From contig CAXXMU010000002.1 in assembly GCA_963667785.2 (NCBI GenBank), forward strand, positions 128,001 to 192,000: a stretch of 64,000 bases of DNA, in the 5' to 3' direction. How positions within the stretch are numbered: the first letter of the stretch is position 1; the number at the start of each line of letters is the position of its first letter. This DNA is from Alphaproteobacteria bacterium (lineage in GTDB: Bacteria; Pseudomonadota; Alphaproteobacteria; UBA828). Made by a program: the position numbers and the translations under genes. The notes beneath the pieces were generated by a model that worked only from the letters and a program-made list of their open reading frames with translations, searched no databases and had not been told where the DNA came from. Shown in pieces: positions 33,331 through 59,356 of this stretch.

Positions 33331-35346
33331 ATGCCGAAGGGTTGGCAGGTCGGGATCGATGTCGGTGGCACGTTCACCGACGTGATCGCCGTGAGCCGGG
33401 CGCATGGCGAGGTCCGCGTTGCCAAGGTCCCCTCCCGCAGCGACGACCGCATCGCCGGTCTGATGGCGGCGCTCGCAGCCGTCGATCTCGACTGGTCGGC
33501 GGTGGACGATCTGATCCACGGCACGACCATCGTCACCAACGCCATCGTCCAGGGCCAGCACGCCAGGGTCGCGCTGATCGCCACCAAGGGGTTCTCGGAC
33601 ACGCTGGCGATCGGGCGCCAGAACCGGCGCCACCTCTACCGGCTCGACCTGCCGCCCAAGCTCCCGCCCCAGGTCCCCGCCGAGCGCCGCTTCGAGGTGA
33701 CCGAGCGGCTCGACCATGAGGGCCGGGTGCTGGTCGCGCTGAACCCGGACTCGGTAGACGACGCCGTCGATAGCATCGCGGCGTGCGGCGCCGAGGCCGT
33801 CGCCGTCTCGCTCCTCCATGCTTACGCGAACCCCGCGCACGAGGAGGCGCTGGGTGCGCGGCTGCGGGCGCGGGTTCCTTACGTGGCGCTCTCGCACCGG
33901 GTGAACCCCGAGGCGCGGGAGTACGAGCGCACGGCGACGACGGCGCTCAGCGCCGGCGTGATGCCGCTGGCCGCGTCCTATCTCGACGAGCTGGAGGAGG
34001 CGAAGCCGGCGGGCTCCGGCCTGCATCTCTTCCATTCCGCGGGCGGCATGGCATCGCCCGCGGCGCTCCGCGACTTGCCGCTCGGCCTCGCCGCCTCTGG
34101 CCCCGCCGCCGGTGTCGCTGCCGCAGGCCGCATGGCCCGCGCGCTCGGGCTGGAACGCGCCATCAGCTTCGACATGGGCGGAACCACTACCGACGTCTGC
34201 CTGATTCTCGACGGCGAGGCGCAGATTTCGAGCGACCGCTCCCTCGGCGGGCGGCCCCTGCGCCAGCCCATGGTGGCGGTGGAGTCCATCGGCGCGGGCG
34301 GCGGCTCCATCGCCCGGCTCGATCACGGCTCTCTCGCGGTCGGGCCGGAAAGCGCCGGCGCGGACCCGGGCCCGGCCTGCTACGCCAGGGGCGGCGACCG
34401 CCCCACGGTGACCGACGCCAATCTGGTGCTCGGCTATATGGACAAGGAGCGTGTTCTCGGCGGCGGCCTCAGCCTCGATGCCGCCGCCGCCCGCGACGCG
34501 CTGGCGCCGCTTGCCGCGGGCATGGAGATGGCCGTGGAGGGTGCCGCTCTGGGCGTCGTCAGGGTGGCCAACGCGGCCATGCTGCGCGCGCTGCGCCGGG
34601 TTACGGTGGAGCGCGGCGTGGATGGCCGCGGCTGCACGCTGCTCGCCTTCGGCGGCGCAGGCCCGATGCATGCGGTGGCGCTGGCGCGCGCCTTCTCCAT
34701 CGCCGACGTCGTGGTTCCCGCCCACTCCAGCATCTTCTCTGCGCTCGGCTGCGTCGGCGCGGAGATGAGCTACGCGCAGCAGCGCACGCTGCGCATGGCG
34801 TCGGACGCCTGGGACGGAACGCGCGTCGACCGGGTGCGGCGGGAGCTGCGCGCCGATCTCGCCGCGCCGCTCGCAGCCGCCGGCCATGACGAGGGCGAGC
34901 TTTCGGTGGAGGAGGTGGCATCGGTCCGCTACCGCAGCCAGAGCTACGCCATCGAGGTGGCGGATGCGTCGTTCGACGACCCGGCCCGCCTGGGCCGCGC
35001 CTTCAGGGAGCGGCATCGGGCGCTCTACGGCTTCGCGACCGAGGAGCCGTGGGAGCTGGAATCGATCCGCATGCGCCTCGCTGCGCCCCGCAACGGCCTC
35101 GCCCATCCGCCCGCCGCCGCGGCCAACGAGGCGCCCGAGCCGGTCGAGACGCTGCCGTGCACGTTCGGGCCCGGCGCGCCGCTGCTGACGCCCCGCTACG
35201 ACCGCGCCGGCCTCGGCCCCGACGTGCCGCTGGCGGGGCCCGTCATCGTCGACGACGCGTGGTCGACCGTCGTGGTGCCGCCCGGTGCGACGCTCACCGC
35301 CGATGCCGCCGGCCATCTCCACATCGCCACGGGGGCGGGCCGGTGA
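33331..35346 (+). CDS. Hydantoinase/oxoprolinase subunit A (ATP-dependent cyclic amide hydrolase)
   Basis: GIDVGGTFTD, HGTT, SGPAAG, DMGGTTTDV, GAGGGSIA, GPESAGADPGPACY, FGGAGPMH. Confidence 0.95.
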   Translation: MPKGWQVGIDVGGTFTDVIAVSRAHGEVRVAKVPSRSDDRIAGLMAALAAVDLDWSAVDDLIHGTTIVTNAIVQGQHARVALIATKGFSDTLAIGRQNRRHLYRLDLPPKLPPQVPAERRFEVTERLDHEGRVLVALNPDSVDDAVDSIAACGAEAVAVSLLHAYANPAHEEALGARLRARVPYVALSHRVNPEAREYERTATTALSAGVMPLAASYLDELEEAKPAGSGLHLFHSAGGMASPAALRDLPLGLAASGPAAGVAAAGRMARALGLERAISFDMGGTTTDVCLILDGEAQISSDRSLGGRPLRQPMVAVESIGAGGGSIARLDHGSLAVGPESAGADPGPACYARGGDRPTVTDANLVLGYMDKERVLGGGLSLDAAAARDALAPLAAGMEMAVEGAALGVVRVANAAMLRALRRVTVERGVDGRGCTLLAFGGAGPMHAVALARAFSIADVVVPAHSSIFSALGCVGAEMSYAQQRTLRMASDAWDGTRVDRVRRELRADLAAPLAAAGHDEGELSVEEVASVRYRSQSYAIEVADASFDDPARLGRAFRERHRALYGFATEEPWELESIRMRLAAPRNGLAHPPAAAANEAPEPVETLPCTFGPGAPLLTPRYDRAGLGPDVPLAGPVIVDDAWSTVVVPPGATLTADAAGHLHIATGAGR

Positions 35347-36938
35347 GCGGCGCCGTCGATCCCGTGACCCTCGAGGTGATCCGCCACGCGCTGACGGCGA
35401 CGGCGGAGGAGATGTCGCTCGTGGTCATGCGCTCGGCGCGCTCGCCGCTGCTGCGCGAGGCCGGCGACCTCTCGTCGGCGCTGACCGATGCCGACGGCCA
35501 CCTCATCGCCCAGGGCCGCGACATTCCCATGCACATGGGGGTGATGAGCTTCACCGTCCGCGAGTTCCTGAAGCGGGTGCCGCGCGAGCGGCTGGAGCCC
35601 GGCGACGTCTGGTTCCTCAACCTGCCGGAGGTCGGCGGCAACCACCTGCCGGACGTGAAGGCGATCCGGCCGATCTTCGTGGACGACGCGATCGTGGCCT
35701 TCGCGGCGAGCCTCGCCCACTGGGCGGATATCGGCGGCGCCGTGCCCGGCAGCTACGTCGCCGGCGCCACCGACGCCTGGCAGGAGGGCCTGCGCATCCC
35801 GCCCTTCCGTCTCTTCACCGCCGCCGGGCCCGACCGCGAGAAGCTCGACATGATCTGCGCCAACGTGCGCGGCGCGGACGAGCGCGAAGGCGACATCCTG
35901 GCCCAGGTCGCGGCCAGCCGGGCGGCCGAGGAGCGCGTGCACCAGATCTGCGCCGAGCACGGCACCGAGACGGTGACCGCCGCCATCGCCGCCATCCACG
36001 ACCGGGCCGAGGCGCAGATGCGCACAGCACTCGCGGCGATCCCCGACGGCGACTACGCGGGCGAGGACTGGCTCGACGACGATGCCGGCGGCGGCGGCCC
36101 CGTCGCCGTCCGCGTGCGCGCGACCATCGCGGGCGATCATGCGCGCTTCGACTTCTCGGAGACCGACGACGCGGCGCGGGGGCCGGTGAACACCACGCCC
36201 TTCATCGCCGCGGCCTCTGTCTTCTACGTGGTGAAGGCGCTGTTCGGTCCCGACATCCAGCCGAGCGGCGGCTGCTACCGGCCGCTGGAGATCGTGACCC
36301 GGCCCGGCTCGCTGCTCGATCCCGGCCCGGAAAGCCCCGTGGTGGGCGGCAATCACGAGACCTCGCAGCGGATCGCCGACGCCGTGTTCCGGGCGCTGGA
36401 GCCGACCGGGCCGGAGCGGCTCACGGCCGGCGGGCCGACCACGTCCGGCCTGGTGCTGTTCGGCGGCAGGCGGAGCGACGGTGCCTGGACCACGCTCTAC
36501 GAGGTCCACGGCGGCGGTGAGGGCGCGCGGCACGACCGCGACGGGGCGCCGGTGATCCGGGTCCACATGTCCAACGTGATGAACACGCCGGCCGAGGTGG
36601 TCGAGGCCGAGTATCCCATCCGCATCGAGTGCCAGCGCCTGCGCCGCGACTCCGGCGGTGCCGGCCGCCACCGCGGCGGCGAGGGGCTGCATCGCGAATA
36701 CAGGGTTCTGGGCGACGACATGTCGGTGACCTCGATGTTCGAGCGCCGCGTGGTGCCGCCCTACGGCCTGCAGGGCGGCGAGGAAGGCGCGCCCTTCCGC
36801 GTGACCGTCGTCCGTGCGGAAGGCCGCAGCTACGACATGCCGGGAAAGGCGAACCTCCGGCTCGGCGAGAACGACCTGGTCGTCGTCGAGAGCTGCGGCG
36901 GCGGCGGATACGGGCAGCCAGAAAGCGAAGGCCGATGA
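35343..36938 (+). CDS. Hydantoinase B/oxoprolinase family subunit
   Basis: GTG overlapping upstream stop; DPVTLEV, GGNHLPD, HWADIGG, QEGLRIPP, NTPAE, SGGAG..RGG, GGGGYG. Confidence 0.95.
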   Translation: MSGAVDPVTLEVIRHALTATAEEMSLVVMRSARSPLLREAGDLSSALTDADGHLIAQGRDIPMHMGVMSFTVREFLKRVPRERLEPGDVWFLNLPEVGGNHLPDVKAIRPIFVDDAIVAFAASLAHWADIGGAVPGSYVAGATDAWQEGLRIPPFRLFTAAGPDREKLDMICANVRGADEREGDILAQVAASRAAEERVHQICAEHGTETVTAAIAAIHDRAEAQMRTALAAIPDGDYAGEDWLDDDAGGGGPVAVRVRATIAGDHARFDFSETDDAARGPVNTTPFIAAASVFYVVKALFGPDIQPSGGCYRPLEIVTRPGSLLDPGPESPVVGGNHETSQRIADAVFRALEPTGPERLTAGGPTTSGLVLFGGRRSDGAWTTLYEVHGGGEGARHDRDGAPVIRVHMSNVMNTPAEVVEAEYPIRIECQRLRRDSGGAGRHRGGEGLHREYRVLGDDMSVTSMFERRVVPPYGLQGGEEGAPFRVTVVRAEGRSYDMPGKANLRLGENDLVVVESCGGGGYGQPESEGR

Positions 36939-37750
36939 ACGCACGAACGAAGCAGGGGAACGGTGCAGTGAAGCTGGATGGCAGGAAGGCAATCGTCACG
37001 GGCGCGGCGAAGGGCATGGGCGCCGCCATCACGACGACGCTGGCGCGCGAGGGCGCCGACGTCGTGCTGACCGCCCGCGACACCGAGCCGCTCGAACGGG
37101 TGGCGGAGGATGTCCGGGCGCTGGGGCGCACGGCCCACGTGATCGGCTGCGACGTGACCGAGGATGCCGAGGTCAAGGCCATGGTCGATGCGGCGCTCGG
37201 CGCCTTCGACGGGCGCATCGACATCCTGGTCAACATCGCCGGCGTCACCGGGCCGATCGAGACGCCGGTGCAGGACATCGACGTGGCCGACTTCGACTAC
37301 GTCATCACCGCCAACGAGCGCGGCACCTTCCTGCCCATCAAGTATGTGGTGCCGACCATGATCGCCCAGCGAAGCGGCAAGATCGTCAATATCGGCGGCA
37401 CCTCGGGCCTGCGCGGCTACGCCATGCGGACCGCCTACAGCGCGTCCAAGTGGGCGGTGCGCGGGATCACGCGCACCGTCGCGCTCGAGGTCGGCAAGTA
37501 CAACGTCAACGTCAACGCCGTCTGCCCCGGCATCGTCGAGACGCCGCGCATGCAGAAGCTCTGCGAGGAGAAGGCCCGCGTGCGCGGCTGGACGGTGGAC
37601 GAGGTGTACGACGAGTACGTGCAGGAGATGTGCCTCAAGCGCGTCACCACCTGCCAGGACGTGGCCAACGCCGTGCTCTTCATGGCGAGCGAGGACAGCC
37701 GCCAGATCACCGGCCAGGCCATCACGGTCGACGGTGGCTGGGACGTGTGA
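36935..37750 (+). CDS. Short-chain dehydrogenase/reductase
   Basis: TGAAKGMG, LVNIAG, YSASK catalytic motif, VDGG. Confidence 0.93.
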   Translation: MNARTKQGNGAVKLDGRKAIVTGAAKGMGAAITTTLAREGADVVLTARDTEPLERVAEDVRALGRTAHVIGCDVTEDAEVKAMVDAALGAFDGRIDILVNIAGVTGPIETPVQDIDVADFDYVITANERGTFLPIKYVVPTMIAQRSGKIVNIGGTSGLRGYAMRTAYSASKWAVRGITRTVALEVGKYNVNVNAVCPGIVETPRMQKLCEEKARVRGWTVDEVYDEYVQEMCLKRVTTCQDVANAVLFMASEDSRQITGQAITVDGGWDV

Positions 37751-37784
37751 GGCGGCAGCGCAGGCGATAGCGGGAGGCGTCACG

Positions 37785-38651
37785 ATGTACGCGCCGTTCG
37801 AACTGGACATTCCGAACGATCTGGCGGGCGCCTTGGCGGCGCTCGCGAACGGGGCCGGCGAGGCGGTTCTCCCCCTCGCCGGCGGCACCAACCTCATCGT
37901 CGACATCCGCGCCGGGCGCGAGCGGCCCGACCGGATGGTGGGCCTCGACGGGGTCGACGAGCTCAAGGGCATGGAGTTCGGGCCGGAGCGCGTCACCATC
38001 GGCGGCCGCACCACGGTGAGTGACCTGCTGCGCTCGCCCGAGATCGCCCGGGAGGCGCCCTCGCTGGTCGAAGCCGCGCGCCTCTTCGGCGGCCTGATGG
38101 TGCGCAACACAGGCACCGTCGCCGGCAACATCGCCAGCGGCTCGCCGGCGGCCGACCTGGTGCCGCCGCTGCTCACGCTCGACGCCGAGTTGGTGCTTCA
38201 GAGCGCCGCGTCCACGCGCACGCTGGCGCTGGACGACTACTACCTCGGCTACAAGCAGGACGCGCGGCGGCCGGACGAGCTGATCACCCGGATCTCGTGG
38301 CCGCGCCTGCCGGAGAACGCCGTCAACACCTTCTACAAGCTCGCCCGGCGCAAGGGCGACGCGATCACGGTGACCGGCGTGGCGGTGACGCTGGCGGCGG
38401 CGGGCGGCACCTGCACCAGGGCGCGGATCGCCCTCGCCTCCGTCGCGCCGGTGGTGCGCCGCGTCAAGGAGGCCGAGGCGCTGCTGGAGGGCCGGGCGCT
38501 GACGCCGTCGCTGATCGACGAGGCGGCGGAGGCGGCGGCGGAGGCGTGCACGCCCATCGACGATATCCGGGCCTCCGCCGATTACCGCCGACACACAGTC
38601 CGGGCGCTGACCCGCCGCCTCGTTGCCGGGGCGTGGGACCGGCTGGCCTAG
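37785..38651 (+). CDS. Xanthine dehydrogenase-family FAD-binding subunit
   Basis: AGGTNL, RNTGTVAGNIA..SP.AD, PIDDIRASADYR. Confidence 0.92.
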   Translation: MYAPFELDIPNDLAGALAALANGAGEAVLPLAGGTNLIVDIRAGRERPDRMVGLDGVDELKGMEFGPERVTIGGRTTVSDLLRSPEIAREAPSLVEAARLFGGLMVRNTGTVAGNIASGSPAADLVPPLLTLDAELVLQSAASTRTLALDDYYLGYKQDARRPDELITRISWPRLPENAVNTFYKLARRKGDAITVTGVAVTLAAAGGTCTRARIALASVAPVVRRVKEAEALLEGRALTPSLIDEAAEAAAEACTPIDDIRASADYRRHTVRALTRRLVAGAWDRLA

Positions 38652-38664
38652 GGGAGTGACGCGC

Positions 38665-39153
38665 ATGTCCGAGACAAGAAACATCACGCTCCGCATCAAC
38701 GGCCGCGAGGAGGAGGGGCGCTTCCCCGCCCATCGCACCCTGCTGGAGGCGCTGCGCCAGCTCGGCCACATGGAGGTGAAGTGCGGCTGCGAGAAGGGCG
38801 ACTGCGGCGCCTGCGCCGTGCTGCTGGACGGCATGGCCGTGGACAGTTGCCTGACGCTGGCCTGGATGGCGGCCGGCAAGGAGGTCACCACCGTCTCCGG
38901 CCTCGGCGATCTCGATGCGCCCCATCCCTTGCAGGAGGCGTTCGCCGACAGCGGCGCCGCGCAGTGCGGCTACTGCATTCCGGGGATCATCATCGCGGCC
39001 CAGGCGATTATCGGCGAGAACCCGGAGCCGACGGAGGACGACATCCGCCTCGGCCTCAGCGGCAATCTCTGCCGCTGCACCGGCTACACCAAGATCTTCG
39101 AGGCCATCGCCGACGCGGCCAGAGAGATGCGCGCCGAGGGAGGTGAGCAATGA
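38665..39153 (+). CDS. Xanthine dehydrogenase-family 2x[2Fe-2S] subunit
   Basis: [22 protein letters not shown]. Confidence 0.95.
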   Translation: MSETRNITLRINGREEEGRFPAHRTLLEALRQLGHMEVKCGCEKGDCGACAVLLDGMAVDSCLTLAWMAAGKEVTTVSGLGDLDAPHPLQEAFADSGAAQCGYCIPGIIIAAQAIIGENPEPTEDDIRLGLSGNLCRCTGYTKIFEAIADAAREMRAEGGEQ

Positions 39154-41492
39154 CCTACACCGACATCGATCCGGGGGCGCTGGCCAACGTCCAGTTCCGG
39201 CAGGTCGGCAAGCCGCTGACCCGCACCGACGCGCCGGGCAAGGTCACCGGGCGGACGCCCTACGCCGGCGACTACGTGATGCCGGGCATGCTGCACATGC
39301 GGGTGGTGCGCGCCGACATCGCGAGCGCCCGCCTCGTCCAGCTCGATGTCTCCCGCGCCAGGGCGCTCAAGGGTGTCGCCTGCGTGCTGACCGCCGCCGA
39401 CATGCCCGACCGCACGTCGGCCACCGACATCCCCGGCCAGACCGGCCAGAAGAGGCTGGATACCGACCAGCCGGTTCTGGTGAAGGATCGGGTCCGCTAC
39501 TTCGGCGAACCGCTCGCCCTGATCGCGGCGGAGACCCGTGACATCGCCGACCACGCGGCGGCGCTCGTCGAGTTCGAGCTTGAGCCGATCCCCGGCGTCT
39601 ACGATCCGCTGGAGGCGCTGAAGCCCGGCGCGCCGCAGGTCTATGGCGCCGACAACATCGTCGCCACGCGCAGGATCAGGAAGGGCGATGTCGAGGCGGG
39701 ATTCGCCCGGGCCGATCTCATCGTCGAGAACACCTACAAGACGCCGTTTCAGGAGCACGCCTTCCTGGAGCCCGAGGTGGGCCTCGCCTGGGTGGACGAG
39801 AACGACGTGGTCAACATCCGCGTCTCGACCCAGGTGATCGAGCACTTCCGGCCCATCGCCGACGCCATCGGCGTGCCGCACAACAAGGTCCGCGTGCGGG
39901 GCGCGCTGGTGGGCGGTGGCTTCGGCGGCAAGGAGGACATGACCGTCGAGGTCTATCTCGCGCTGCTCGCGAAGCACACGGGTAGGCCGGTGCGGCTCGA
40001 ATACTCGCGCGAGGATTCCTTCGTCGGCCACGGCAAGCGCCACCCCTTCATCCTCACCTACCGCACCGGGGTGACGAAGGAGGGCAAGATCACCGCCCTC
40101 GAGGTGACGATGATCGCGGACGCCGGCGCCTACGTCTTCCTCAGCCCCTACGTCATCCTCTACGCGCTGGTCGCAGCCCCCGGCCCCTACCGGGTCGACA
40201 ATCTCAACGTCTTCGCGCAGGCGGTCGCCACCAACAACATGTACACGAGCGCCTTCCGCGGCTTCGGCGCGCTGCAGGCCTGCGCGGCCTACGAGCAGCA
40301 GATGGACGAGATCGCGGACGCGCTCGGCATCGACCGCCTGGAGCTCCGCCGGCGCAACTTCCTGAAGACCGGCGAGCCCATGTCCACCGGCTTCGTCCCG
40401 CCGAGCGCCATCTGGACCGAGCAGTGCGCGGAGAAGGCCTGGGCCGGGCTGGGCGAGCCCACGCCGGCGCAAGGCCCGATACGGACCGGGCGCGGCCTCG
40501 CCTGCTACCAGCAGAGCTACGGCCGCCTCACCTTCCTGCACGACACCTCGGAAGCGTGGGTCGGCGTCGAGATGGACGGCACCGTCGTGGTGCGCTCCGG
40601 CGTCACCGACATCGGTGCCGGCCAGATTTCGGCGCTCGGCCAGATCGCGGTGGAGGTGCTGGGCGTCACGCTGGACAACGTCGTCATCTACAACAGCGAT
40701 TCCGCCGTGACCCCGCTCGCCGGCACCACGACCGCGACGCGCGCGCTCTACATGACCGGCAACGCCGCCAAGCAGGCGGCCGAAGGGCTTCGCGCCCGGC
40801 TGGTCGAACGCGCGGCGCAGGAATTCGGCGTGGCGCCCGACGAGATCGACTTGGGCTTCAACGAGGTCTTCGTCATCGACAGGCCGGAGAAGACCATGCC
40901 GCTGGTCGAGCTGGTGCGGATCTGCGCGGCTGAAGGCATCCACCGCTCGGAACTGGCCATCTTCCGTGCCCCGTTCGGCGATTTCCTCGATCCCGAGACC
41001 GGCCAGGGGCAGGCCCATCCCGACTATGCCTACGGCGCCCACGCGGTGGAGGTTTCCGTCGACGTGGAGACCGGCGAGGTCGAGGTGCTGAAGAGCGTGG
41101 CCGCGCACGATGTCGGCCAGTGCATCAACCCGGCGGCCGTTGAGGGCCAGATTCAGGGAGGCGCGCAGAACGGGCAGGGCTACGCGCTCAGCGAGGAGAT
41201 GCTCTACGAGGAGGGCCGCCTGGTCACGCCGTCGTTCAGCGAGTACCTGATGCCGACGGCCATGGACATGCCGAAGGTCGAGTGCATCATCCTCGAATCC
41301 CGCAGCGGCGTCGGGCCCTTTGGCGCCAAGGGCATCGGCGAGCCGGCCATGACTGCCGTGGCGCCCGCCATCGCCAACGCCGTCGCCGACGCCATCGGCG
41401 TGCGCGTCTTCGAGATGCCGATCACGCCGGAGCGCGTGGTCCGGGCGTTGCACGGGAAGAGCGCTGCGGAACAGGGCCGGGATCCGGCGTGA
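39150..41492 (+). CDS. Xanthine dehydrogenase-family molybdopterin-binding subunit
   Basis: GGGFGGK, AFRGFG, QIQGG, KGIGEP (catalytic Glu). Confidence 0.95.
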   Translation: MTYTDIDPGALANVQFRQVGKPLTRTDAPGKVTGRTPYAGDYVMPGMLHMRVVRADIASARLVQLDVSRARALKGVACVLTAADMPDRTSATDIPGQTGQKRLDTDQPVLVKDRVRYFGEPLALIAAETRDIADHAAALVEFELEPIPGVYDPLEALKPGAPQVYGADNIVATRRIRKGDVEAGFARADLIVENTYKTPFQEHAFLEPEVGLAWVDENDVVNIRVSTQVIEHFRPIADAIGVPHNKVRVRGALVGGGFGGKEDMTVEVYLALLAKHTGRPVRLEYSREDSFVGHGKRHPFILTYRTGVTKEGKITALEVTMIADAGAYVFLSPYVILYALVAAPGPYRVDNLNVFAQAVATNNMYTSAFRGFGALQACAAYEQQMDEIADALGIDRLELRRRNFLKTGEPMSTGFVPPSAIWTEQCAEKAWAGLGEPTPAQGPIRTGRGLACYQQSYGRLTFLHDTSEAWVGVEMDGTVVVRSGVTDIGAGQISALGQIAVEVLGVTLDNVVIYNSDSAVTPLAGTTTATRALYMTGNAAKQAAEGLRARLVERAAQEFGVAPDEIDLGFNEVFVIDRPEKTMPLVELVRICAAEGIHRSELAIFRAPFGDFLDPETGQGQAHPDYAYGAHAVEVSVDVETGEVEVLKSVAAHDVGQCINPAAVEGQIQGGAQNGQGYALSEEMLYEEGRLVTPSFSEYLMPTAMDMPKVECIILESRSGVGPFGAKGIGEPAMTAVAPAIANAVADAIGVRVFEMPITPERVVRALHGKSAAEQGRDPA

Positions 41493-41517
41493 GCGCCGGC
41501 CTGCGGCGAGCCGAGGC

Positions 41518-42279
41518 ATGTCCGAGACCAACGACAAGCCGCTGAGCCGGTACATCCGGGTGCTGGAGACGGTCGCCCACGCCAGGACGGGCGTGACGCT
41601 CACGGACATCGCCAGGGAGCTGGAGCTGCATCCGGGGACGGCGCATCGCCTGATCCGCGGTCTCGTCGCTCTCGACCTGCTGCACAGTCCGGCCGGAACC
41701 AAGAGCTACGTGGCCGGTGCCAGGCTTCAGTCTCTCCTCCACGCGACCATGGACCGCGCGGGCTATGCGGCGTTCGCGAAGTCCGTCCTCGACGGGCTCG
41801 TGGCGGAGTTCGGCGAGACCGCCCATCTGGCGCGGCTGAGCGGCGACTTCGCCGAGTCCGTGCTGATGGAGCAGCCGTCGGGCTCCGACCGCGCCTTCGT
41901 GCAGCCGGGGCGCCAGCTTCCGTTGCACGCGGCGGCGTCGGGCAAGGCGATCCTCGCCTTTCAGGACGAGGACTTCGTGGCGCGCTATCTCACGCGGCCG
42001 CGCGAGCAGTTCACGGAAAGGACCAAGGTCGGCGAGACCGCCATCCGCAACGAGATCGACCGCATTCGCGCCGACGGGATGGCGGTCTGCGACAACGAGC
42101 TCGACAGCGGCGTGCTCAGCTACGGGCACCCGGTGCGGATCGGCGGCGGTCAGGTCCTCTATTCGGTCGGCATCACCGGGCTCGCCGACCGCTTCCGCCC
42201 CATCGATCGCTCCAGGATCAAGCTGAGGCTCTCGGAGGCGGCGGCCGATCTCGGCAGGAGGCTCGGGTTCACAGGCTAA
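41518..42279 (+). CDS. IclR family transcriptional regulator
   Basis: N-terminal HTH (LTDIARELELHPGTAHRL), GETAHL, LPLHAAASGKAILAF. Confidence 0.93.
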   Translation: MSETNDKPLSRYIRVLETVAHARTGVTLTDIARELELHPGTAHRLIRGLVALDLLHSPAGTKSYVAGARLQSLLHATMDRAGYAAFAKSVLDGLVAEFGETAHLARLSGDFAESVLMEQPSGSDRAFVQPGRQLPLHAAASGKAILAFQDEDFVARYLTRPREQFTERTKVGETAIRNEIDRIRADGMAVCDNELDSGVLSYGHPVRIGGGQVLYSVGITGLADRFRPIDRSRIKLRLSEAAADLGRRLGFTG

Positions 42280-42291
42280 GGGAATGTGTCG

Positions 42292-43233
42292 ATGGTCGAC
42301 TCACGCTTGGCGGACATCGTTCGAAACTGCCGGAACACGACGGCCAGCAGCTGCGGCGGCTATCTGGAGCCGACGGCCACGGGTCAGCCGGGAGCCTACG
42401 TCTCGACGATTCTGCTTTCGACCGGCAGCGTCAATCTCGAGCAGTTTCCGGGCTACCCGTTCGAGGAGGATCTGGACCAGGGCATGGCCGAGATCGTGTC
42501 CTACGACCGCGCCGAGTGTAACGATTCCTATATCGGCCAGGTCAACATGCTGCAGGCGTCGTCGTTCAGCGGCGTCAACGGCGCCATCTGGGGCTACGAC
42601 CTGGCGATCGAACCCCGCATCGGCAAGACCTATCCCGTCGGCCGCATCGAGAACATTCCCATCTACTCGCTCATTCCCCTGCGCGACGCCACCCGGCAGC
42701 TCTTCGGCGTCGCCGAGAGCCGGCACTTTCCGCCGCAGGAAGGGGCGATGGTCGTCTGTGCCGAGAAGTACCGGACGAGCACGGTCTCCGACGGCAATCT
42801 CTGGATCTGGTGCGCGCTCGGCTTCGCGATTGCGGAGGATCGCGAGAACCATGCCTGCCTGTTCATGGAAGATACGGGCTCGCTGGCGCTGGGGCCGGAC
42901 GGGGGACAGGCGGTGCGGGAGAGGCTCGACGACAGGCTCAACAGGATCGCCTACGCGGCGTACCTCTGCGGCGTGAACCAAGGCGCGACCTACGAGAAGA
43001 TCTATATCGGCTGGAAGGCGTCCCACATTCCCGAGAACCATGTGGGCTGCGCGCTCGCCTGCGCGCCGTACGTGACGCTGCCGACGGGCGCGTTCAGGAA
43101 CATCACGCCGGAGACGGGCATCCTGGAGCTTTCGACGGACGAGTGGCTGTCCCGGGTCGGCCACTCCAGGGTGGACGAGCCCGACTACGAGCTCGAGACC
43201 CTGACCGGGCCGAACATCCCGGCCGTGCAGTAG
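42292..43233 (+). CDS. hdcA: Pyruvoyl-dependent histidine decarboxylase proenzyme
   Basis: IVSYDRAE, YIGQVNM..ASSF (Ser-Ser self-cleavage site), CAEK, FMED, APYV correspond to the conserved motifs of Lactobacillus-type HdcA. Confidence 0.88.
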   Translation: MVDSRLADIVRNCRNTTASSCGGYLEPTATGQPGAYVSTILLSTGSVNLEQFPGYPFEEDLDQGMAEIVSYDRAECNDSYIGQVNMLQASSFSGVNGAIWGYDLAIEPRIGKTYPVGRIENIPIYSLIPLRDATRQLFGVAESRHFPPQEGAMVVCAEKYRTSTVSDGNLWIWCALGFAIAEDRENHACLFMEDTGSLALGPDGGQAVRERLDDRLNRIAYAAYLCGVNQGATYEKIYIGWKASHIPENHVGCALACAPYVTLPTGAFRNITPETGILELSTDEWLSRVGHSRVDEPDYELETLTGPNIPAVQ

Positions 43234-43279
43234 GCAACGGCTGCCACTCCCGATGGGCCGCTGACCGGAGAGTCGTGCG

Positions 43280-44365
43280 TTGACCGAGACGAGCATAGCG
43301 ATCGACGTGCGTAACGCGGTGAAGCGCTTCGGCGCGGTCACGGCGCTCGCCGGCGCGTCGCTGACGATCCGGGACAACGAGTTTTTCACGCTGCTCGGCC
43401 CTTCGGGCTGCGGCAAGACCACCCTGCTCCGCCTCATCGCCGGCTTCGAGGAGATCACCGAGGGCGAGATCCTCCTCTACGGCGAGGACCTCGGGGCGCT
43501 GCCGCCCAACCGGCGCCCGATCAACACCGTCTTCCAGCACTACGCGCTCTTCCCGCACATGACGGTGGCGGAGAACGTGGCCTTCGGCATGCGGAGGCTC
43601 GGCTGGAGCAAGGCCGACATCGAGGACCGGACGCTGCGCATCCTCGATCTGGTGAAGCTCGGCGACCTCGCGGCGCGGAGGCCCGCCCAGCTTTCGGGCG
43701 GGCAGCAGCAGCGGGTGGCACTCGCCCGCGCCATGGCGCCCCGGCCGAAGGTGCTCCTGCTCGACGAGCCGCTGTCCGCGCTCGACCTCAAGCTGCGTCA
43801 GGCCATGCGGATCGAGCTGAAGCAGATCCAGAAGGATACCGGCATCACCTTCGTCTTCGTCACCCACGACCAGGAAGAGGCGCTGACCATGTCAGACCGC
43901 ATCGCCGTGATGTCGGCGGGCGAGATCCGGCAGGTGGGCACGCCACGCGAGATCTACGAGGCGCCCCTCGACCGCTTCGTGGCCGACTTCATCGGCGAGA
44001 CCAACGTGCTGGACGCGACCGTGCGGCGGGGGCCGGACGATGCACTGACCTGCCACCTTGCCAACGGGGCCGCGTTCCCGTGCCACGCGAGCGTGCCGCC
44101 AGGAGACGGGGCCTTCGCACACGTGCTGATTCGGCCGGAGCGCCTCTCCCTCGTGCCCGAGGCGGTGTGCGACACCGGCCTCACGGGCGTGGTCGACCAG
44201 GCCGTCTACCTCGGCACCGACATCCAGTACGGCGTGCGGCTGGATGGGGGGCCGGACGTCCTGGTCCGCGCGCAGAATGTCGGCGCCGACGCGGTGACCT
44301 ATCGCACCGGTGATCGCGTCGGGCTCGCCATCGCCCCCGGCGCTGCGCGACTGCTGGTGGACTGA
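43280..44365 (+). CDS. potA: Polyamine-type ABC transporter ATP-binding protein
   Basis: GPSGCGKT, INTVFQ.YALFPH, LSGGQQQR, VTHDQEEAL. Confidence 0.88.
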   Translation: MTETSIAIDVRNAVKRFGAVTALAGASLTIRDNEFFTLLGPSGCGKTTLLRLIAGFEEITEGEILLYGEDLGALPPNRRPINTVFQHYALFPHMTVAENVAFGMRRLGWSKADIEDRTLRILDLVKLGDLAARRPAQLSGGQQQRVALARAMAPRPKVLLLDEPLSALDLKLRQAMRIELKQIQKDTGITFVFVTHDQEEALTMSDRIAVMSAGEIRQVGTPREIYEAPLDRFVADFIGETNVLDATVRRGPDDALTCHLANGAAFPCHASVPPGDGAFAHVLIRPERLSLVPEAVCDTGLTGVVDQAVYLGTDIQYGVRLDGGPDVLVRAQNVGADAVTYRTGDRVGLAIAPGAARLLVD

Positions 44366-45291
44366 TGGCCGGCGAGCTCGCCAGCACGCGCGCGGTCTCC
44401 CGCACCTTCGCGCCGGTGCGCACCCACTTGCTGATCCCGACCTGGGTGATCATCGGCTTCTTCCTCGTGGCGCCGGTGCTGATGATGCTCGTCTACTCCT
44501 TCCTGACGAAGGAGTTTCGGGGCGGCGTGATCTGGGACTTCTCGCTCGCGGCCTACGACCAGTTCATCTTCGACCGCGGCCTCTTCGGCGACGATCCGCC
44601 GCAGATCGAGTGGACCTACATCGTCATCTTCGCGCGCTCGATCGTGCAGGCCGCCGTCGCCACCGTGCTCTGCCTCATCATCGGCTTCCCGACCGCCTAC
44701 TTCATCGCGACCCGCTCGCCCGCGACGCGCTCGATGTGGCTCTTCCTGGTGACGGTTCCCTACTGGGTGAACCTGCTCATCCGCACGGTCTCGATGAAGT
44801 TCCTCATCCGCGACAACGGGCCGCTCAACGAGGCGCTGCTCGGTCTCGGGGTCATCAGCGAGCCGATCGCGCTCATCAACACCGATTTCGCCGTGCAGCT
44901 CGGCCTCTTCTACTCGTATCTGCCCTTCATGGTGCTGCCGATCTACGCCTCGGTGGAGCGCTACGACTTCGCCCTTTCGGAGGCGGCGGCCGACCTCTAC
45001 GCCAACCGCTGGACGATCCTGCGCAGGGTGATCCTGCCGATCGTGCGGCCAGGCATCGTGGCGGGCTGCATCCTGGTCTTCGTGCCAAGCCTCGGCGCCT
45101 TCCTCGCGCCCGACCTTCTCGGCGGCGCGAAGAACTTCCTGATCGGCTCGCTGATCGAGGAGCAGTTCAAGGGCAACGCCGGCAACTGGCCCTTCGGCGC
45201 TGCCGCCTCGATGATCCTGCTCTCCCTCGTGCTGATCGCGCTCTTCATCTACGCGCGCCGGCAGGCGCTGCGCAGCGCGAAGGCCGCCTGA
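44365..45291 (+). CDS. potB: Polyamine-type ABC transporter permease
   Basis: [33 protein letters not shown]. Confidence 0.85.
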
Positions 45292-45292
45292 G

Positions 45293-46114
45293 ATGCGGCG
45301 CAGGCTCGACATCCGCCGCTATCCCGGCTTCCTGCCGGTGACGATCCTCTGCCTCGTGGTGCTCTACGCGCCGCTGCTGGTGGTGATGGTCTACAGCTTC
45401 AACGACTCGCTCTCGATCACCCGCTGGGGCGGGTTCAGCTTCCGCTGGTACATGGACATCTTCACCGGGCCGGAATCGGCCAAGTTCAAGGATGCGGCGT
45501 GGAACTCGCTCACCATCGCGCTCTGCGCGGCGACGGCCAGTACGACCATCGCCACCGCCGCGGCGGTCGCGATGGTGCGGGGCGGCGCCTTCCGCGGCAA
45601 GGCGCTCAACCTCGCGCTCATCAGCATGCCGATCATGGTGCCGGAGATCGTCACCGCGGTGGCGACGCTGGTCTTCTTCAGCGCCATCGGTTTCACGCTC
45701 GGCTATCTCTCCATTCTCGTCGCCCACATCGTCTTCTGCATTCCGTTCGCGTACCTGCCGATCGCGGCACGCCTGCAGGGGATCGACGGCAGCTACGAGG
45801 AGGCCGCGCAGGATCTTTACGCGAGCCGCTTCCAGGCGTTCCTGCGCGTTCTCATGCCGTTGATGGCGCCCGGCATTCTCGCGGGCTTTCTGCTGGCATT
45901 CATCATCTCGCTGGACGATTTCATCATCACCAACTTCATCAAGGGCGCCGGTATCGAGACCCTGCCCACGGCGATATTCGGGGCCGTGAAGCAGGGCATC
46001 AAACCCAACATCATGGCGCTCAGCACCATCATGCTCTCCGTCTCGATCCTGATCGTCACGCTCTCCTATTTCATCAGCCGGTACGGTCGTCAGGGAACGA
46101 AGGCGGAGGCGTGA
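45293..46114 (+). CDS. potC: Polyamine-type ABC transporter permease
   Basis: [28 protein letters not shown]. Confidence 0.85.
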
Positions 46115-46152
46115 GTTTTTTGCGGCAATCAAACTCAACCAAGGAGGCCACA

Positions 46153-47190
46153 ATGCGCTACTTGCTCAAAGCCGGAATGGCGGCGTTGGCCCTGACCCTT
46201 GTCGCAGGCGCGGCACAGGCGCAGGAGAAGCTCTCGATCTACCACTGGTTCGAGTACATCCCGCAGGAGCTGCTGGACAAGTTCTCCGCGGAAACGGGAA
46301 TCGAGGTGACCATGGACACCTTCGATTCCAACGAGGCCATGCTGGCATCGCTCAAGGCCGGCAAGCTCGGCTCCTACGACGTGGCGGTGCCGGGCGATTA
46401 CATGGTCGAGATCATGATCGGCGAAGGCATGCTCGACACCGTCGCGGACGGCGAGCTCGCCAACTTCGCGAACATCGAGCAGCAGTGGCTGGACGTGCCC
46501 TTCGACATGGGCCGCAAGCACTCGATCCCCTACCAGTGGGGCTCGACCAGCTTTTCGGTCAACCGGGACGTCTATCAGGGCGACATCAACGACACCGCCA
46601 TCGTCTACGACCCGCCGGACGAGCTTAAGGGCAGGATCAACGTGCTCGACTCCCAGGGCGAGGTCATGCTGCTGGCTGCCCTCCACCTCGGCATTCCGCA
46701 GTGCTCGACCGACCGCGAGCAGCTCAAGCAGCTCGACGCGCTGCTGCAGGCGGCGAAGCCGCACTGGGCCTCGTTCAACTCCGACGGCGCCAAGGACGTG
46801 CTGGTCTCCGGCGACGCCGCGGTGGGGATGATCTGGAACGGCTTCGGCGCCAAGGCACGCGCCGAGGGCGCCAACATCGAGTACGCCTACCCGCGCCAGG
46901 GTTATGTCGTCTGGATGGACAATGTCGTGCTGCTGAAGGACGCCCCCAACCGGGCCAGCGCGATCAAGTTCATGGACTTCCTGCTGGAGCCGGAGAACAT
47001 CGCCGCGGTCACCAACTACGCGCGCTATGCCGCCGGCGTGACGGGCGTGACTCCGCATCTCGATCCGGAGCTCGCCAGCCAGCCCGAATCGGTGCCGCCG
47101 GCCGACGCGCCTGCCGGCACCTTCGTCGCCGTGTGCGATCAGGCGACGCAGGAGGTCTACGACACCATGTGGACCCGCCTGAAGAAGTAG
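46153..47190 (+). CDS. potD: PotD/PotF-type substrate-binding protein (candidate histamine binder)
   Basis: AAGGAGG RBS, signal peptide, WFEYI, FDSNE, PGDY, PYQWG, WMDN. Confidence 0.85.
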   Translation: MRYLLKAGMAALALTLVAGAAQAQEKLSIYHWFEYIPQELLDKFSAETGIEVTMDTFDSNEAMLASLKAGKLGSYDVAVPGDYMVEIMIGEGMLDTVADGELANFANIEQQWLDVPFDMGRKHSIPYQWGSTSFSVNRDVYQGDINDTAIVYDPPDELKGRINVLDSQGEVMLLAALHLGIPQCSTDREQLKQLDALLQAAKPHWASFNSDGAKDVLVSGDAAVGMIWNGFGAKARAEGANIEYAYPRQGYVVWMDNVVLLKDAPNRASAIKFMDFLLEPENIAAVTNYARYAAGVTGVTPHLDPELASQPESVPPADAPAGTFVAVCDQATQEVYDTMWTRLKK

Positions 47191-47207
47191 ACGTCCGTTA
47201 CCCGTTG

Positions 47208-47243
47208 CCGGGCGGCGCGCTCCAGCGGGGCGCGTCGCGCCGG
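47208..47243 (+). terminator. Imperfect GC-rich stem-loop between binding-protein gene and dehydrogenase
   Basis: CCGGGCGGCGCGC..GCGCGTCGCGCCGG after the stop at 47190; no U-tract. Confidence 0.3.
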
Positions 47244-47274
47244 CCACCCCTGTCTCGGCCGATCGGGTGATCCC

Positions 47275-49347
47275 ATGAGCGTTGATTCGCGTTTCGACAT
47301 TCTGCTTCAGCCCATCGAGATCGGGCCCGTCACCGCCCGCAACCGCTTCTACCAGGTGCCGCATTGCACCGGCATGGGCTACCGCGACCCGACGGCGCTC
47401 GCCCACATGCGCGGCGTCAAGGCCGAAGGGGGCTGGGCCGTGGTCTGCACCGAGCAGGTCGAGTTCCACTGGACCTCGGAGATCACGCCCTTCATCGAGC
47501 TCCGGCTCTGGGACGACCGCGACATTCCGATGCTCGCCAGGATGGCGGAGCACGTCCACGCGCACGGCGCGCTCGCCGGGCTGGAGCTTTGCTACAACGG
47601 CGCGCACGCGCCCAACTTCTATTCGCGCGAAGTGCCGCTGGCGCCGACGGGCCTGCCGGTCGCGAGCTTCAGTTACGAGCCCGTCCAGGCGCGCAGCATG
47701 GACAAGCAGGACATCCGCAACGTCCGCCGCTGGCACAGGGCGGCGGCGCTTCGCGCCCGGCAGGCGGGCTACGACCTGATCTACGTGTACGCCGGCCACG
47801 GGCTGAGCTTCCTCCATCACTTCCTCTCCAGGGAGTTCAATCACCGCACGGACGAATACGGCGGCTCGCTGGAGAACCGCGTCCGGCTCCTCAAGGAGCT
47901 CCTGACCGACACCAGGGAGGCGGTGGGCGACACCTGCGCCGTTCCCTGTCGCCTCTCGATGGACGAGCTGCGCGGGGGCGTCGGGCTGGAGAAGGCCGAG
48001 ACCGAGGACATGATCGGACTCGTGGCCGAGATTCCGGACCTCTGGGACGTCTGCCTCGCCTCCTGGGAGAACGACAGCATGCCGTCCCGCTTCGGCGAGG
48101 AGGGCGGGCAGGAGCCCTACATCGACGGCGTGAAGAAGCTCACCACCAAGCCCGTGGTGGGCGTCGGCCGCTACACCTCGCCCGACCGCATGGCGTCCAT
48201 CATCCGCAAGGGCATCGTCGACCTGATCGGCTGCGCGCGGCCCTCCATCGCCGATCCCTTCCTGCCGCGAAAGGTGGAGGAGGGGCGCATCGAGGACATC
48301 CGCGAGTGCATCGGCTGCAACATCTGCGTCTCCGGCGACTTCACCATGTCGCCCATCCGCTGCACCCAGAACCCGACCATGGGGGAGGAGTGGCGCCGGG
48401 GCTGGCATCCGGAGCGCATCCGGCCGAAGGAGAGCGACAAGCCCGTCCTCGTCGTCGGCGCCGGCCCCGCCGGACTGGAGGCGGCACAGGCGCTCGGCAA
48501 GCGGGGCTACGAGGTGACCCTGGCGGAGCAGGCCACGGAGCTCGGCGGCCGCGTGGCAAAGGAGTGCCGCCTGCCGGGGCTCGCCGCCTGGGGCCGGGTT
48601 CGCGACTGGCGCGTCGAGCAGCTTCACAAGCTGCCGAACGTGAGCGTCTACCTGGATTCACGCCTCGATGCGGAGGCCGTCCTTGAGTTCGGCTGCCCCC
48701 GCGTCGTCATCGCCACCGGGTCGCGCTGGCGCGGCGACGGGGTGGGCCGCCACTGGACGACGCCGGTGCCGACCGGGGACGGCGCGCAGGTGCTGACGCC
48801 CGACGACATCATGGAGGATCGTCTGCCGCAGGGCCGGCGCGTCCTCGTCTGGGACGACGATCACTACTACATGGCCAGCGTGATGGCCGAGCTCCTGGCG
48901 GAGAAGGGCTTCGACACCACCTACGTTACGCCCGCGTCGGAGGCCTCGACCTGGTCGCGCAACACCATGGAGCAGCACTTCGCGCAGGCGCGCATGCTGG
49001 AGAAGGGAATTCGCATCCAGCCGTTCCGGACGCTAAACCGCATCGCGCCGGGCGCGGTCGCGCTCTCGTGCGTTCACACGGGCCGGGAGGAGGAGCTGGA
49101 GGCCGATGCCGTGCTCCTCGTCACCTCCCGCACGCCGTCGGACGAGCTCGCGACCGCGCTCGCGCGCCTGCACGAGAGGTGGTCGGACGCCGGTCTCGAA
49201 GCCGTCGACGCCATCGGCGACGCGCTCGCGCCGGCGACCATCGCGCATGCCGTCTACGCCGGCCGGCGCTACGCGGAGGAGCTCGACGGCCCGGGGGTCA
49301 CGGGCGATGCGGTGCCCTTCAAGCGCGAGCTTGCCGAATTGATCTAG
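47275..49347 (+). CDS. Histamine dehydrogenase (trimethylamine dehydrogenase family; 6-S-cysteinyl-FMN, [4Fe-4S])
   Basis: NRFYQVPHC.GMGYRDP, CTEQVE.H.TS.I.PFIELR.WDD, SWE.DS, CIGCNIC...C motifs match histamine dehydrogenase (Nocardioides type) better than TMADH, as recalled. Confidence 0.85.
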   Translation: MSVDSRFDILLQPIEIGPVTARNRFYQVPHCTGMGYRDPTALAHMRGVKAEGGWAVVCTEQVEFHWTSEITPFIELRLWDDRDIPMLARMAEHVHAHGALAGLELCYNGAHAPNFYSREVPLAPTGLPVASFSYEPVQARSMDKQDIRNVRRWHRAAALRARQAGYDLIYVYAGHGLSFLHHFLSREFNHRTDEYGGSLENRVRLLKELLTDTREAVGDTCAVPCRLSMDELRGGVGLEKAETEDMIGLVAEIPDLWDVCLASWENDSMPSRFGEEGGQEPYIDGVKKLTTKPVVGVGRYTSPDRMASIIRKGIVDLIGCARPSIADPFLPRKVEEGRIEDIRECIGCNICVSGDFTMSPIRCTQNPTMGEEWRRGWHPERIRPKESDKPVLVVGAGPAGLEAAQALGKRGYEVTLAEQATELGGRVAKECRLPGLAAWGRVRDWRVEQLHKLPNVSVYLDSRLDAEAVLEFGCPRVVIATGSRWRGDGVGRHWTTPVPTGDGAQVLTPDDIMEDRLPQGRRVLVWDDDHYYMASVMAELLAEKGFDTTYVTPASEASTWSRNTMEQHFAQARMLEKGIRIQPFRTLNRIAPGAVALSCVHTGREEELEADAVLLVTSRTPSDELATALARLHERWSDAGLEAVDAIGDALAPATIAHAVYAGRRYAEELDGPGVTGDAVPFKRELAELI

Positions 49348-50887: not shown

Positions 50888-51012
50888 GGGGCGGGGCTCG
50901 TTCGTAGGGCGGCGCGCGGGCGCCGGCGCGTCCGCGTCGTGGAGCATGCACATGGGGGCGCGGCGCGGGCGAGTCAACACGCCGGGGCGGCTTGGCAATG
51001 GCGCCGCCTCGC

Positions 51013-51090: not shown

Positions 51091-51167
51091 CGGAGTGTAG
51101 CTCAGCCTGGTAGAGCACCGTCTTCGGGAGGCGGGGGTCGGTGGTTCAAATCCACTCACTCCGACCA
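51091..51167 (+). tRNA. tRNA-Pro (anticodon CGG)
   Basis: 77 nt; acceptor CGGAGTG/CACTCCG, anticodon arm CCGTC-TTCGGGA-GGCGG, GGTTCAAATCC T-arm, encoded CCA. Confidence 0.97.
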
Positions 51168-53434: not shown

Positions 53435-53446
53435 AGGGAGGTGGAG

Positions 53447-56403: not shown

Positions 56404-56462
56404 AAGACGCCCAGCCGCCGGGAGGGGCGGCGCGCACGCGGGCAGAGCAGGGAGGGGGTCCC

Positions 56463-58832: not shown

Positions 58833-58869
58833 CGCCCGCGGCAACCGGAACGATCGCGGGAGAAAGGCG

Positions 58870-59343
<474 letters not shown>

Positions 59344-59356
59344 GGGGGAGGGGCCG

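Follow-up and report, generated by a model that had tools for sequence, protein, structure and literature searches.

A row of 13 genes (positions 33331-49347, all on the + strand) in the genome of a sponge-associated alphaproteobacterium is probably, judging from its sequence, a histamine catabolic locus with a non-orthologous, oxygenase-free back end. The row lies in a stretch of 64,000 nucleotides (G000:C2:128001-192000, called the window below), which belongs to a genome of 4.09 Mb and ~70% G+C in 14 contigs (98% complete, 6.6% contamination). It joins the genes of a pyruvoyl-dependent histidine decarboxylase (HDC), a PotABCD-like ATP-binding cassette (ABC) importer and a histamine dehydrogenase (HADH) to those of a two-subunit hydantoinase (HyuAB), a short-chain dehydrogenase/reductase (SDR), a three-subunit molybdenum (Mo) hydroxylase of the xanthine dehydrogenase (XDH) family and an IclR-family regulator. 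The first-pass annotation had listed these 13 co-oriented genes with these identities, and Pfam and NCBIfam searches of the open reading frames (ORFs) of the window recovered every one of them in place and agreed with the assignments. The same searches assigned none of the 13 gene products to an oxygenase family. That the row is one histamine/histidine catabolic locus of two modules forming an integrated pathway is a tentative reading, to which we give a little less than an even chance.

Histidine Decarboxylase, Histamine Dehydrogenase and Importer

The HDC proenzyme matches PF02329 over residues 21-292 with 147.7 bits (cut-off 25) and TIGR00541 with 149.1 bits, below the equivalog cut-off of 346.65; it is a divergent member of the family with ~40% identity to named homologues. 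The self-cleavage site is kept (...QASS/FSG). Ser92-Ser93-Phe94 correspond to the Ser81/Ser82 site of the solved Lactobacillus 30a enzyme, Ser92 aligning with Ser81, the last residue of the β-chain, and Phe94 with position 2 of the α-chain. The residues that we take to be the substrate and catalytic residues of the Lactobacillus 30a enzyme (Ile59, Tyr62, Asp63, Glu66, Phe195 and Glu197) are identical in the window protein (alignment to chains A and B of 1HQ6/1PYA). PF02329 was found in none of the 380 other sampled alphaproteobacterial genomes.

The window HADH scores 894 bits against the solved enzyme of Rhizobium sp. 4-9 (6DE6) and 890 bits against that of Nocardioides simplex (3K30), followed by 729 bits against 6L6J and 537 bits against trimethylamine dehydrogenase (TMADH). 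The Pfam domain order, Oxidored_FMN followed by ADP-binding domains, is that of the TMADH family. This order and the catalytic and substrate residues are common to the window protein and the two closest enzymes: Cys30, Gln60, Ile69, Phe72, Glu74, Tyr171, His174, Arg225, Trp263 and Asp354 are kept (Rhizobium numbering, from PMC10180351), Cys30 being the cysteine for 6-S-cysteinyl FMN. The window enzyme differs in having His for Asn110 and Leu for Phe176 of the Rhizobium enzyme, and its Trp-x-x-Asp register, with the catalytic Asp at Trp+3 as the same paper gives for the N. simplex enzyme, is nearer to the latter. The same substrate-site signature is present in the HADHs of two metagenome loci, L096 and L125, and in those of hin-type histamine clusters (see below). 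Histamine dehydrogenases oxidise agmatine too, and the N. simplex enzyme also putrescine, according to PMC10180351.

The importer genes are ordered with the ATPase first, then two permeases and the binding protein last. The PotD-like protein reaches 211.8 bits with the NCBIfam PotD model, short of the equivalog cut-off of 582; the importer shares the PotABCD architecture, and its ligand is probably other than spermidine or putrescine. Its binding protein is probably one for histamine. Orthologues of potABCD (54-73% identity) adjoin HADH in the hin-type clusters L080, L084 and L092, which belong to three other alphaproteobacterial families; as the orthologues sit together there, potABCD and HADH make up a conserved unit. 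On the residues of HDC and HADH and on the scores, the proposal of the first-pass annotation that histidine is converted through histamine to imidazole acetaldehyde is well founded.

Hydantoinase, SDR and Mo Hydroxylase

HyuA and HyuB belong to the hydantoinase A/B family, as the Hydantoinase_A, Hydant_A_N and Hydantoinase_B domains occur in adjacent genes. Among solved structures HyuA is closest to N-methylhydantoinase (7HK5, 369 bits), followed by 6YRA (323 bits). The best NCBIfam matches of the two proteins are caprolactamase subunits (alpha, 425 bits, for HyuA; 260 bits for HyuB), each far from the cut-off of 1000, and neither protein reaches an equivalog cut-off to a characterised member such as caprolactamase or acetophenone carboxylase. 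The two-subunit form and both Pfam domains are common to HyuAB and the ATP-dependent N-methylhydantoinase, caprolactamase and 5-oxoprolinase. Unlike in the window, the hydantoinase of the creatinine and caprolactam pathways is not known to be linked to a Mo hydroxylase and an SDR. The longest ORF of hyuB spans 35049-36938; its likely start is GTG 35343, overlapping the hyuA stop, and in the long ORF the Hydantoinase_B match starts only from residue 104.

For the SDR, no NCBIfam model reaches its cut-off. Orthologues with 62-94% identity hold the same position in other loci of this kind. The gene lies in ORF 36629-37750 with a likely start at GTG 36968, the Pfam matches spanning residues 120-371 of the long ORF; an alternative frame, 36814-37770, was rejected, as it has no family match. 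IclR orthologues (41-47% identity) stand beside hyuA or the Mo gene in other such loci.

The three-subunit architecture (FAD, 2x[2Fe-2S], molybdopterin) of an XDH-family Mo hydroxylase is present. The Mo subunit is no XDH equivalog by NCBIfam (pucD 530 bits, cut-off 784; XdhA 501 bits, cut-off 780). Its solved relatives include 4-hydroxybenzoyl-CoA reductase (362 bits) and the nicotinate dehydrogenase of E. barkeri, whose split subunits give 295 and 213 bits, 508 in total; in the core region the latter is the best solved match, with 213 bits against 127 for XDH. Like xanthine and nicotinate dehydrogenase, the window enzyme consists of FAD, 2x[2Fe-2S] and Mo subunits; it also keeps the residues that align with Gln767, Glu802 and Phe914 of XDH, and differs in Tyr where Arg880 aligns. 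Arg880 and Glu802 are presumably substrate residues of XDH, and aldehyde oxidases presumably lack Glu802; since the Glu802 position is kept and Arg880 is replaced by Tyr, the subunit fits a heterocycle hydroxylase other than XDH. The hydroxylation of purine C8 by XDH is chemically a hydroxylation of imidazole C2.

Proposed Pathway

The front end, which is well founded, would begin with the formation of histamine from histidine by the pyruvoyl decarboxylase and with the uptake of external histamine by the Pot-type ABC system. The FMN/4Fe-4S dehydrogenase would then oxidise histamine, yielding imidazole acetaldehyde. Within the back end the six genes hyuA, hyuB, SDR, FAD, FeS and Mo (the module below), together with IclR, would fill the place that hin-type genes, deformylases among them, hold beside HADH in other Alphaproteobacteria. 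We infer that imidazole acetaldehyde would be converted to imidazole-4-acetate, by the Mo enzyme itself or by an unlinked aldehyde dehydrogenase, and that the Mo hydroxylase would place water-derived oxygen on a ring carbon next to nitrogen. The SDR, by oxidation of a carbinolamide, or a second hydroxylation could then lead to hydantoin-5-acetate, which HyuAB with ATP would open to N-carbamoyl-aspartate, followed by aspartate. O2 would be needed as a substrate in no step. The most economical reading of the module is that it may degrade imidazole-4-acetate, replacing the monooxygenase branch of the hin pathway.

A wider proposal is that sponge-associated Rhodospirillales have replaced Hut by an O2-independent route through histamine, imidazole acetate and hydantoin-5-acetate, and that the module is a widespread imidazole-acetate degradation module fed by a dehydrogenase, an aminotransferase or a 2-oxoacid decarboxylase. 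We regard this extension as possible, though on balance unlikely.

Comparison with hin-Type Clusters and Other Routes

The hin pathway of Pseudomonas putida U (de la Torre et al. 2018, as tabulated in PMC6467879) converts histamine into aspartate, by way of imidazole acetaldehyde and imidazole acetate, by means of the aminotransferase HinC, the aldehyde dehydrogenases HinD/E, the O2-dependent FAD monooxygenase HinF, amidases, an enamine deaminase and an aspartase. As in the window row, uptake, amine oxidation and ring degradation are there placed in one locus; in so far as the hin enzymes are tabulated, they are absent from the row, which has the Mo hydroxylase, SDR and HyuAB instead, plus a histidine decarboxylase.

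We examined 18 regions around HADH-like genes from 17 genomes. Hin-type companions (aldehyde dehydrogenase, Pyr_redox_3 flavin monooxygenase, RidA, LysR, M20 hydrolase, CN-hydrolase and/or aspartase) accompany six of them (L080, L083, L084, L090, L091, L092), and these six match the P. putida hin composition as tabulated in PMC6467879. Genes for hyuAB and the Mo enzyme were found in none of the 18. These hin-type clusters share with the window the PotABCD orthologues and HADH (55-62% identity), with the substrate-site signature mentioned above; unlike the row, the six have no hyuAB, Mo genes or HDC. In these six loci, of which L084 lies in G093, HADH stands in for the HinC aminotransferase and is found with PotABCD, two aldehyde dehydrogenases, the Pyr_redox_3 monooxygenase, RidA, M20, CN-hydrolase and aspartase. 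The monooxygenase belongs, below the cut-off, to the NCBIfam MSMEG_0569 family.

The window genome was searched with the hin-type proteins of L084, which served as queries in place of the P. putida proteins. It holds no close homologues: the best matches are 34-37% identical for the aldehyde dehydrogenases and 37% for the monooxygenase, none of them near the row, and 44% for the M20 hydrolase, and no monooxygenase match reaches E ≤ 1e-90. Urocanase (PF01175) is likewise absent from this 98%-complete genome, hutI and hutG not having been searched for; the aromatic-lyase family is represented by one ORF with modest scores of 94 and 92 bits. The check for hin and hut genes that the first-pass annotation had called for came out, within this scope, in favour of its reading. 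Complementarity between the module and the monooxygenase was considered as evidence and rejected, as one of the seven module genomes (G097) has both; exclusivity would also be expected by chance because the monooxygenase occurs in only 17 of 401 genomes.

Two pathways for pyridine substrates offer partial parallels. In the fungal hxn nicotinate pathway, Mo hydroxylation is followed by an SDR-type oxidation that yields a cyclic imide, whose ring is then opened by hydrolysis. The nicotine VPP pathway of Agrobacterium tumefaciens S33 brings together an aldehyde dehydrogenase, a Mo hydroxylase and Pno, an HADH-like amine dehydrogenase with 46-48% identity to HADHs (PMC5500553). Unlike the window row, neither has, as far as these descriptions go, an ATP-dependent HyuAB step or a histidine decarboxylase.

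The Module in Other Genomes and Metagenomes

HyuA orthologues (54-75% identity) were found in 12 of the 400 other sampled Alphaproteobacteria, the next matches being at most 44% identical. Eleven HyuA regions were examined: five carry the complete order hyuA-hyuB-SDR-FAD-FeS-Mo, one is cut at a contig end, one has distant Mo genes, and four have hyuAB only. An IclR orthologue (43-44%) stands beside three of the five complete loci and another (41%) beside the partial locus L050. Other neighbours are a Liv-type ABC system (G104, G267) and a dimethylglycine-dehydrogenase-like protein with an MttB-family methyltransferase (G097, G164 C40). In a separate, phylum-level sample, Mo subunit orthologues at E ≤ 1e-180 occur in none of 400 other genomes, which shows only that the module is rare there.

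A scan of metagenomes, made with six aligned Mo subunits, gave 80 loci of 60-93% identity, which were reduced to 66 lineages by dereplication at 90% Mo-subunit identity; 27 of these have hyu or SDR genes beside the Mo genes. Neighbours were tallied in the 22 of the 27 with 3 kb or more of sequence beyond the six genes. An HADH of at least 60% identity adjoins the module in three of the 22, in a different arrangement each time: in the window clade; in L096, as module-IclR-HADH (75% identity); and in L125/L126, where the Mo gene is followed by an agmatinase-subfamily gene and HADH (66%) with gaps of 66 and 15 nt. The first-pass annotation had named as refuting evidence that the two halves never co-occur elsewhere, and L096 and L125/L126 are two such co-occurrences. 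As HADH-like genes are found in only 41 of 401 genomes, three adjacencies in 22 lie far above the chance expectation, which is a rough estimate and not a test.

The module also recurs beside genes whose products form an aldehyde from an amine or 2-oxo acid, or oxidise such an aldehyde; in the lineage of the window, histidine and histamine are what these genes are specific for. Within the tally, neighbours of this kind are an aldehyde dehydrogenase (2/22: L101, L121/124), an omega-aminotransferase (1/22: L101) and an AruI-like decarboxylase (1/22: L132); a Pot-type importer adjoins the module in three of the 22, and L101 carries aldehyde dehydrogenase, omega-aminotransferase and Pot-type importer together. 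Outside the tally, an aldehyde dehydrogenase gene lies between the SDR and FAD genes in L103 and before the FAD gene in L115, and L145 has the Mo gene followed by an AruI-like decarboxylase and an aldehyde dehydrogenase 81% identical to that of the G093 hin-type cluster.

Co-occurrence at the level of genomes was rejected as evidence. An HADH-like gene (E ≤ 1e-200) is present in 41 of all 401 genomes and in five of the six with the module (complete in five, truncated by a contig end in G028); however, the copies of G164 and G104 are without the substrate signature, that of G097 has it only in part, and these genomes contain dozens of family members. The linkage in G164 was not counted either, the module and two HADH-like genes lying 26-45 kb apart on one contig with the signature absent.

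Several variants of the module were seen. In L051 (G097), L053 (G164 C40) and L154-L158 it is flanked by an 815-residue DAO+GCV_T protein of the dimethylglycine/sarcosine dehydrogenase type and an MttB-family methyltransferase, which suggests an N-methylated substrate in those lineages. L137, L148 and L122 (two lineages) have a UbiD-family decarboxylase of 460 residues a few kb from the module. The Mo subunits of L159-L174 (60-63% identity) occur without hyuAB, often with a second, distant XDH-family set upstream and an amidohydrolase downstream, and are probably a sister subfamily with another function.

Close Relatives of the Row

Eight loci with an HDC of 82-89% identity were compared with the row. 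The genes from hyuA through HDC are kept in all six that reach upstream and potABCD in all six that reach downstream, HADH following potD in three of the latter. In L015 HDC is relocated behind HADH and the row is still together. The amidase upstream of hyuA was considered as an N-carbamoyl-aspartate hydrolase and rejected, since it is not kept there in the relatives (L011 has a Zn-ADH fragment in its place).

In L177-L179 (G773, G775, G774), which come from the relatives whose row has no HADH, the neighbours of an HADH of 73-74% identity are two amidases and an aldehyde-dehydrogenase-like gene (32-33%), and in two of these three loci hyuAB paralogues (34-37%) also stand beside it, a further pairing of HADH with hydantoinase-type genes. 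In L095, a metagenome locus of 93% identity, HDC is present only as a fragment of 151 residues (10923-11378), placed between IclR and potA, and potD is not followed by an HADH; decay of the copy or an error in sequencing may account for the fragment. Contig C7 of the window genome (14,963 bases) carries a syntenic FeS(partial)-Mo-IclR-HDC-potABCD-HADH-...-threonine dehydratase arrangement with 82-97% protein identity, in which HADH is in two frames (C7:4500-6215, 6202-6570) and the Mo gene match contains two TGA codons. Given the 6.6% contamination, this copy probably belongs to a co-binned related strain and is not a duplication.

Evaluation of the Readings

A number of observations weigh against the integrated pathway. 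None of the 11 HyuA regions, the five complete modules included, contains HDC, HADH or a Pot gene, and 19 of the 22 tallied lineages have no HADH neighbour. The tally also includes a Liv-type binding protein (2/22), UbiD decarboxylase (2/22) and dimethylglycine-dehydrogenase-like and MttB neighbours (2/22), and nine of the 22 have none of the tallied neighbours; the Liv, UbiD, MttB and demethylase neighbours suggest other or broader substrates of the module. The independence of the metagenome lineages rests on sequence divergence alone. In L125/L126 the agmatinase-subfamily gene is placed between the module and an HADH, a family that also oxidises agmatine (PMC10180351). The HADH-like genes of G164 and G104, both module-bearing, have no substrate signature. 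In the close relatives L011, L013 and L016 the row contains no HADH, and the only copy (73-74%) lies elsewhere. Neither aldehyde oxidation nor the hydrolysis of N-carbamoyl-aspartate has an assigned gene in the window, and nicotinate dehydrogenase is the best match to the core of the Mo subunit. The left half of the row is an independent, self-contained module that is mostly found without the right half. Of the single pathway proposed in the first-pass annotation, the front end stood, and module and HADH are linked in other lineages too; its unity is only partly supported, because the module mostly stands alone and hin-type genes accompany potABCD and HADH elsewhere, all six hin-type HADH loci being without the module.

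The same observations can be read as two unrelated, adjacent units, the module degrading another N-heterocycle (a pyridine carboxylate or an N-methylated compound) and the hdc-pot-hadh genes stopping at imidazole acetaldehyde or acetate, which would be excreted or handled elsewhere. The solitary module of most lineages, the match of the Mo core to nicotinate dehydrogenase, the MttB and dimethylglycine-dehydrogenase-like neighbours in G097, G164 C40 and L154-L158 and the occurrence of PotABCD with HADH apart from the module all speak for this reading. It is countered by the recurrence of HADH adjacency in three differently arranged lineages, at a frequency that by a rough estimate chance would hardly give, by the orthologous aldehyde dehydrogenase genes embedded in the module, by the mere 6-12 nt between IclR and HDC, and by the failure to find an alternative downstream route in the window genome. 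We consider it unlikely.

The chemistry of HyuAB raises a different question, namely whether the row serves aliphatic amines through a lactam: an amino-aldehyde would cyclise to an imine, which the Mo enzyme would convert to a lactam and HyuAB, with ATP, to an omega-amino acid. The caprolactamase matches of HyuA and HyuB, the polyamine family to which a Pot-type importer belongs and the agmatinase-subfamily gene beside HADH in L125/L126 would suit such a route. The dimethylglycine-dehydrogenase-like neighbours would fit the demethylation of an N-methyl amino acid, to which N-methylpyrrolidone degradation is a parallel. The agmatine and putrescine activities of HADHs given in PMC10180351 agree with it as well. 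However, the window has a histidine-specific decarboxylase with its imidazole-binding site intact, imidazole acetaldehyde offers no amine for cyclisation, the aldehyde dehydrogenase that L101 and L103 have within the module would circumvent the lactam, the UbiD and AruI-like decarboxylase neighbours suit aromatic or 2-oxo acids better, and the caprolactamase cut-offs are far off. This route appears quite improbable.

Slightly less probable still is that the Mo enzyme is here a mere oxidoreductase of imidazole acetaldehyde to imidazole acetate, with HyuAB and the SDR serving some unrelated lactam or hydantoin: aldehydes are common substrates of XDH-family enzymes, the window contains no aldehyde dehydrogenase gene and the best in the genome matches at only 31-37%, but the Mo genes are linked to hyuAB-SDR throughout 27 lineages, the Glu802-aligned residue that aldehyde oxidases presumably lack is kept, and aldehyde oxidation is unlikely as the conserved role because Mo genes and aldehyde dehydrogenase share an operon in L101, L103, L115 and L121.

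Layout and Surroundings of the Row

The coordinates of the 13 genes are collected in Table 1. The intergenic spacing in the row ranges, from these coordinates, from -4 to 84 nt. On the left, a gap of 221 nt separates the row from an amidase gene (31685-33109), which is preceded by genes for SecA, ArgJ, a NUDIX hydrolase and an enolase-superfamily protein; on the right it meets a threonine dehydratase gene that runs towards it (49367-50998, minus strand). Consensus scans inside the row gave two promoter-like sites (0.9 expected) and two terminator-like sites (4.4 expected), hence no convincing internal promoter or terminator. An Rfam scan of the window matched solely a tRNA (51091-51164) and no riboswitch.

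Table 1. Genes of the row with their positions in the window and the matches that support them.
Gene product	Position	Strand	Support
hyuA, ATP-dependent hydantoinase/oxoprolinase family A subunit	33331-35346	+	Pfam Hydantoinase_A 272 bits, Hydant_A_N 174 bits
hyuB, hydantoinase B subunit	35343-36938	+	Pfam Hydantoinase_B 597 bits
SDR	36968-37750	+	Pfam adh_short_C2 198 bits, adh_short 186 bits
XDH-family FAD-binding subunit	37734-38651, alternative start ATG 37782	+	Pfam FAD_binding_5 140 bits, CO_deh_flav_C 88 bits
XDH-family 2x[2Fe-2S] subunit	38623-39153, likely start ATG 38665	+	Pfam Fer2_2 99 bits, Fer2 38 bits
XDH-family molybdopterin (Mo) subunit, predicted hydroxylase	39150-41492	+	Pfam MoCoBD_1, MoCoBD_2, Ald_Xan_dh_C
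IclR-family regulator	41518-42279	+	Pfam IclR_C, HTH_IclR
Pyruvoyl-dependent HDC proenzyme	42286-43233, start GTG 42286 or ATG 42292	+	PF02329
ABC importer ATPase, PotA-like	43280-44365	+	Pfam ABC_tran, TOBE_2
ABC importer permease, PotB-like	44365-45291	+	Pfam BPD_transp_1
ABC importer permease, PotC-like	45293-46114	+	Pfam BPD_transp_1
Periplasmic binding protein, PotD-like	~46153-47190	+	Pfam SBP_bac_8
HADH (FMN, 4Fe-4S; TMADH family)	47275-49347	+	Similarity to solved HADHs

In one sponge metatranscriptome library, available as contigs, pieces ~88-98% identical to the DNA were found across the region, and contigs of ~93% identity span IclR/HDC (42087-42344) and potC/potD (45914-46760). This is a weak hint only, because neither level nor strand nor a single transcript can be read from contigs and such a library may contain DNA; stretches without contig cover carry no meaning.

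Downstream of the row, the window is unusually dense in XDH-family Mo hydroxylase genes (52571-63964), with large subunits at 53749-56403, 56463-58832 and 60851-63964, FAD subunits at 52571-53434 and 59357-60157 and a 2Fe-2S subunit at 58870-59343.

Implications

To our knowledge, hin, which depends on an oxygenase, is the one known bacterial route of histamine breakdown, and Hut is almost the only one for histidine. A search of the main texts of openly available papers found no publication joining histamine dehydrogenase with hydantoinase and none linking imidazole-4-acetate, molybdenum and hydantoin; among the matches listed, no such route is described for carboxymethylhydantoin or imidazole acetate. 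Within that scope, the first-pass statement that no described pathway has this gene set holds.

The idea is directly testable, since the genes are few and the predicted intermediates simple. If the module acts on imidazole acetate, the imidazole ring would have a second route of cleavage, one that does without O2 as a substrate, and a function would be given to a conserved six-gene module that at least 27 sequence lineages among environmental bacteria carry. Such an activity would also add a new substrate class for XDH-family hydroxylases and for ATP-dependent hydantoinases, and it would bear on how symbionts of animals, for example of sponges, may remove or use a host signalling amine under scarce oxygen.

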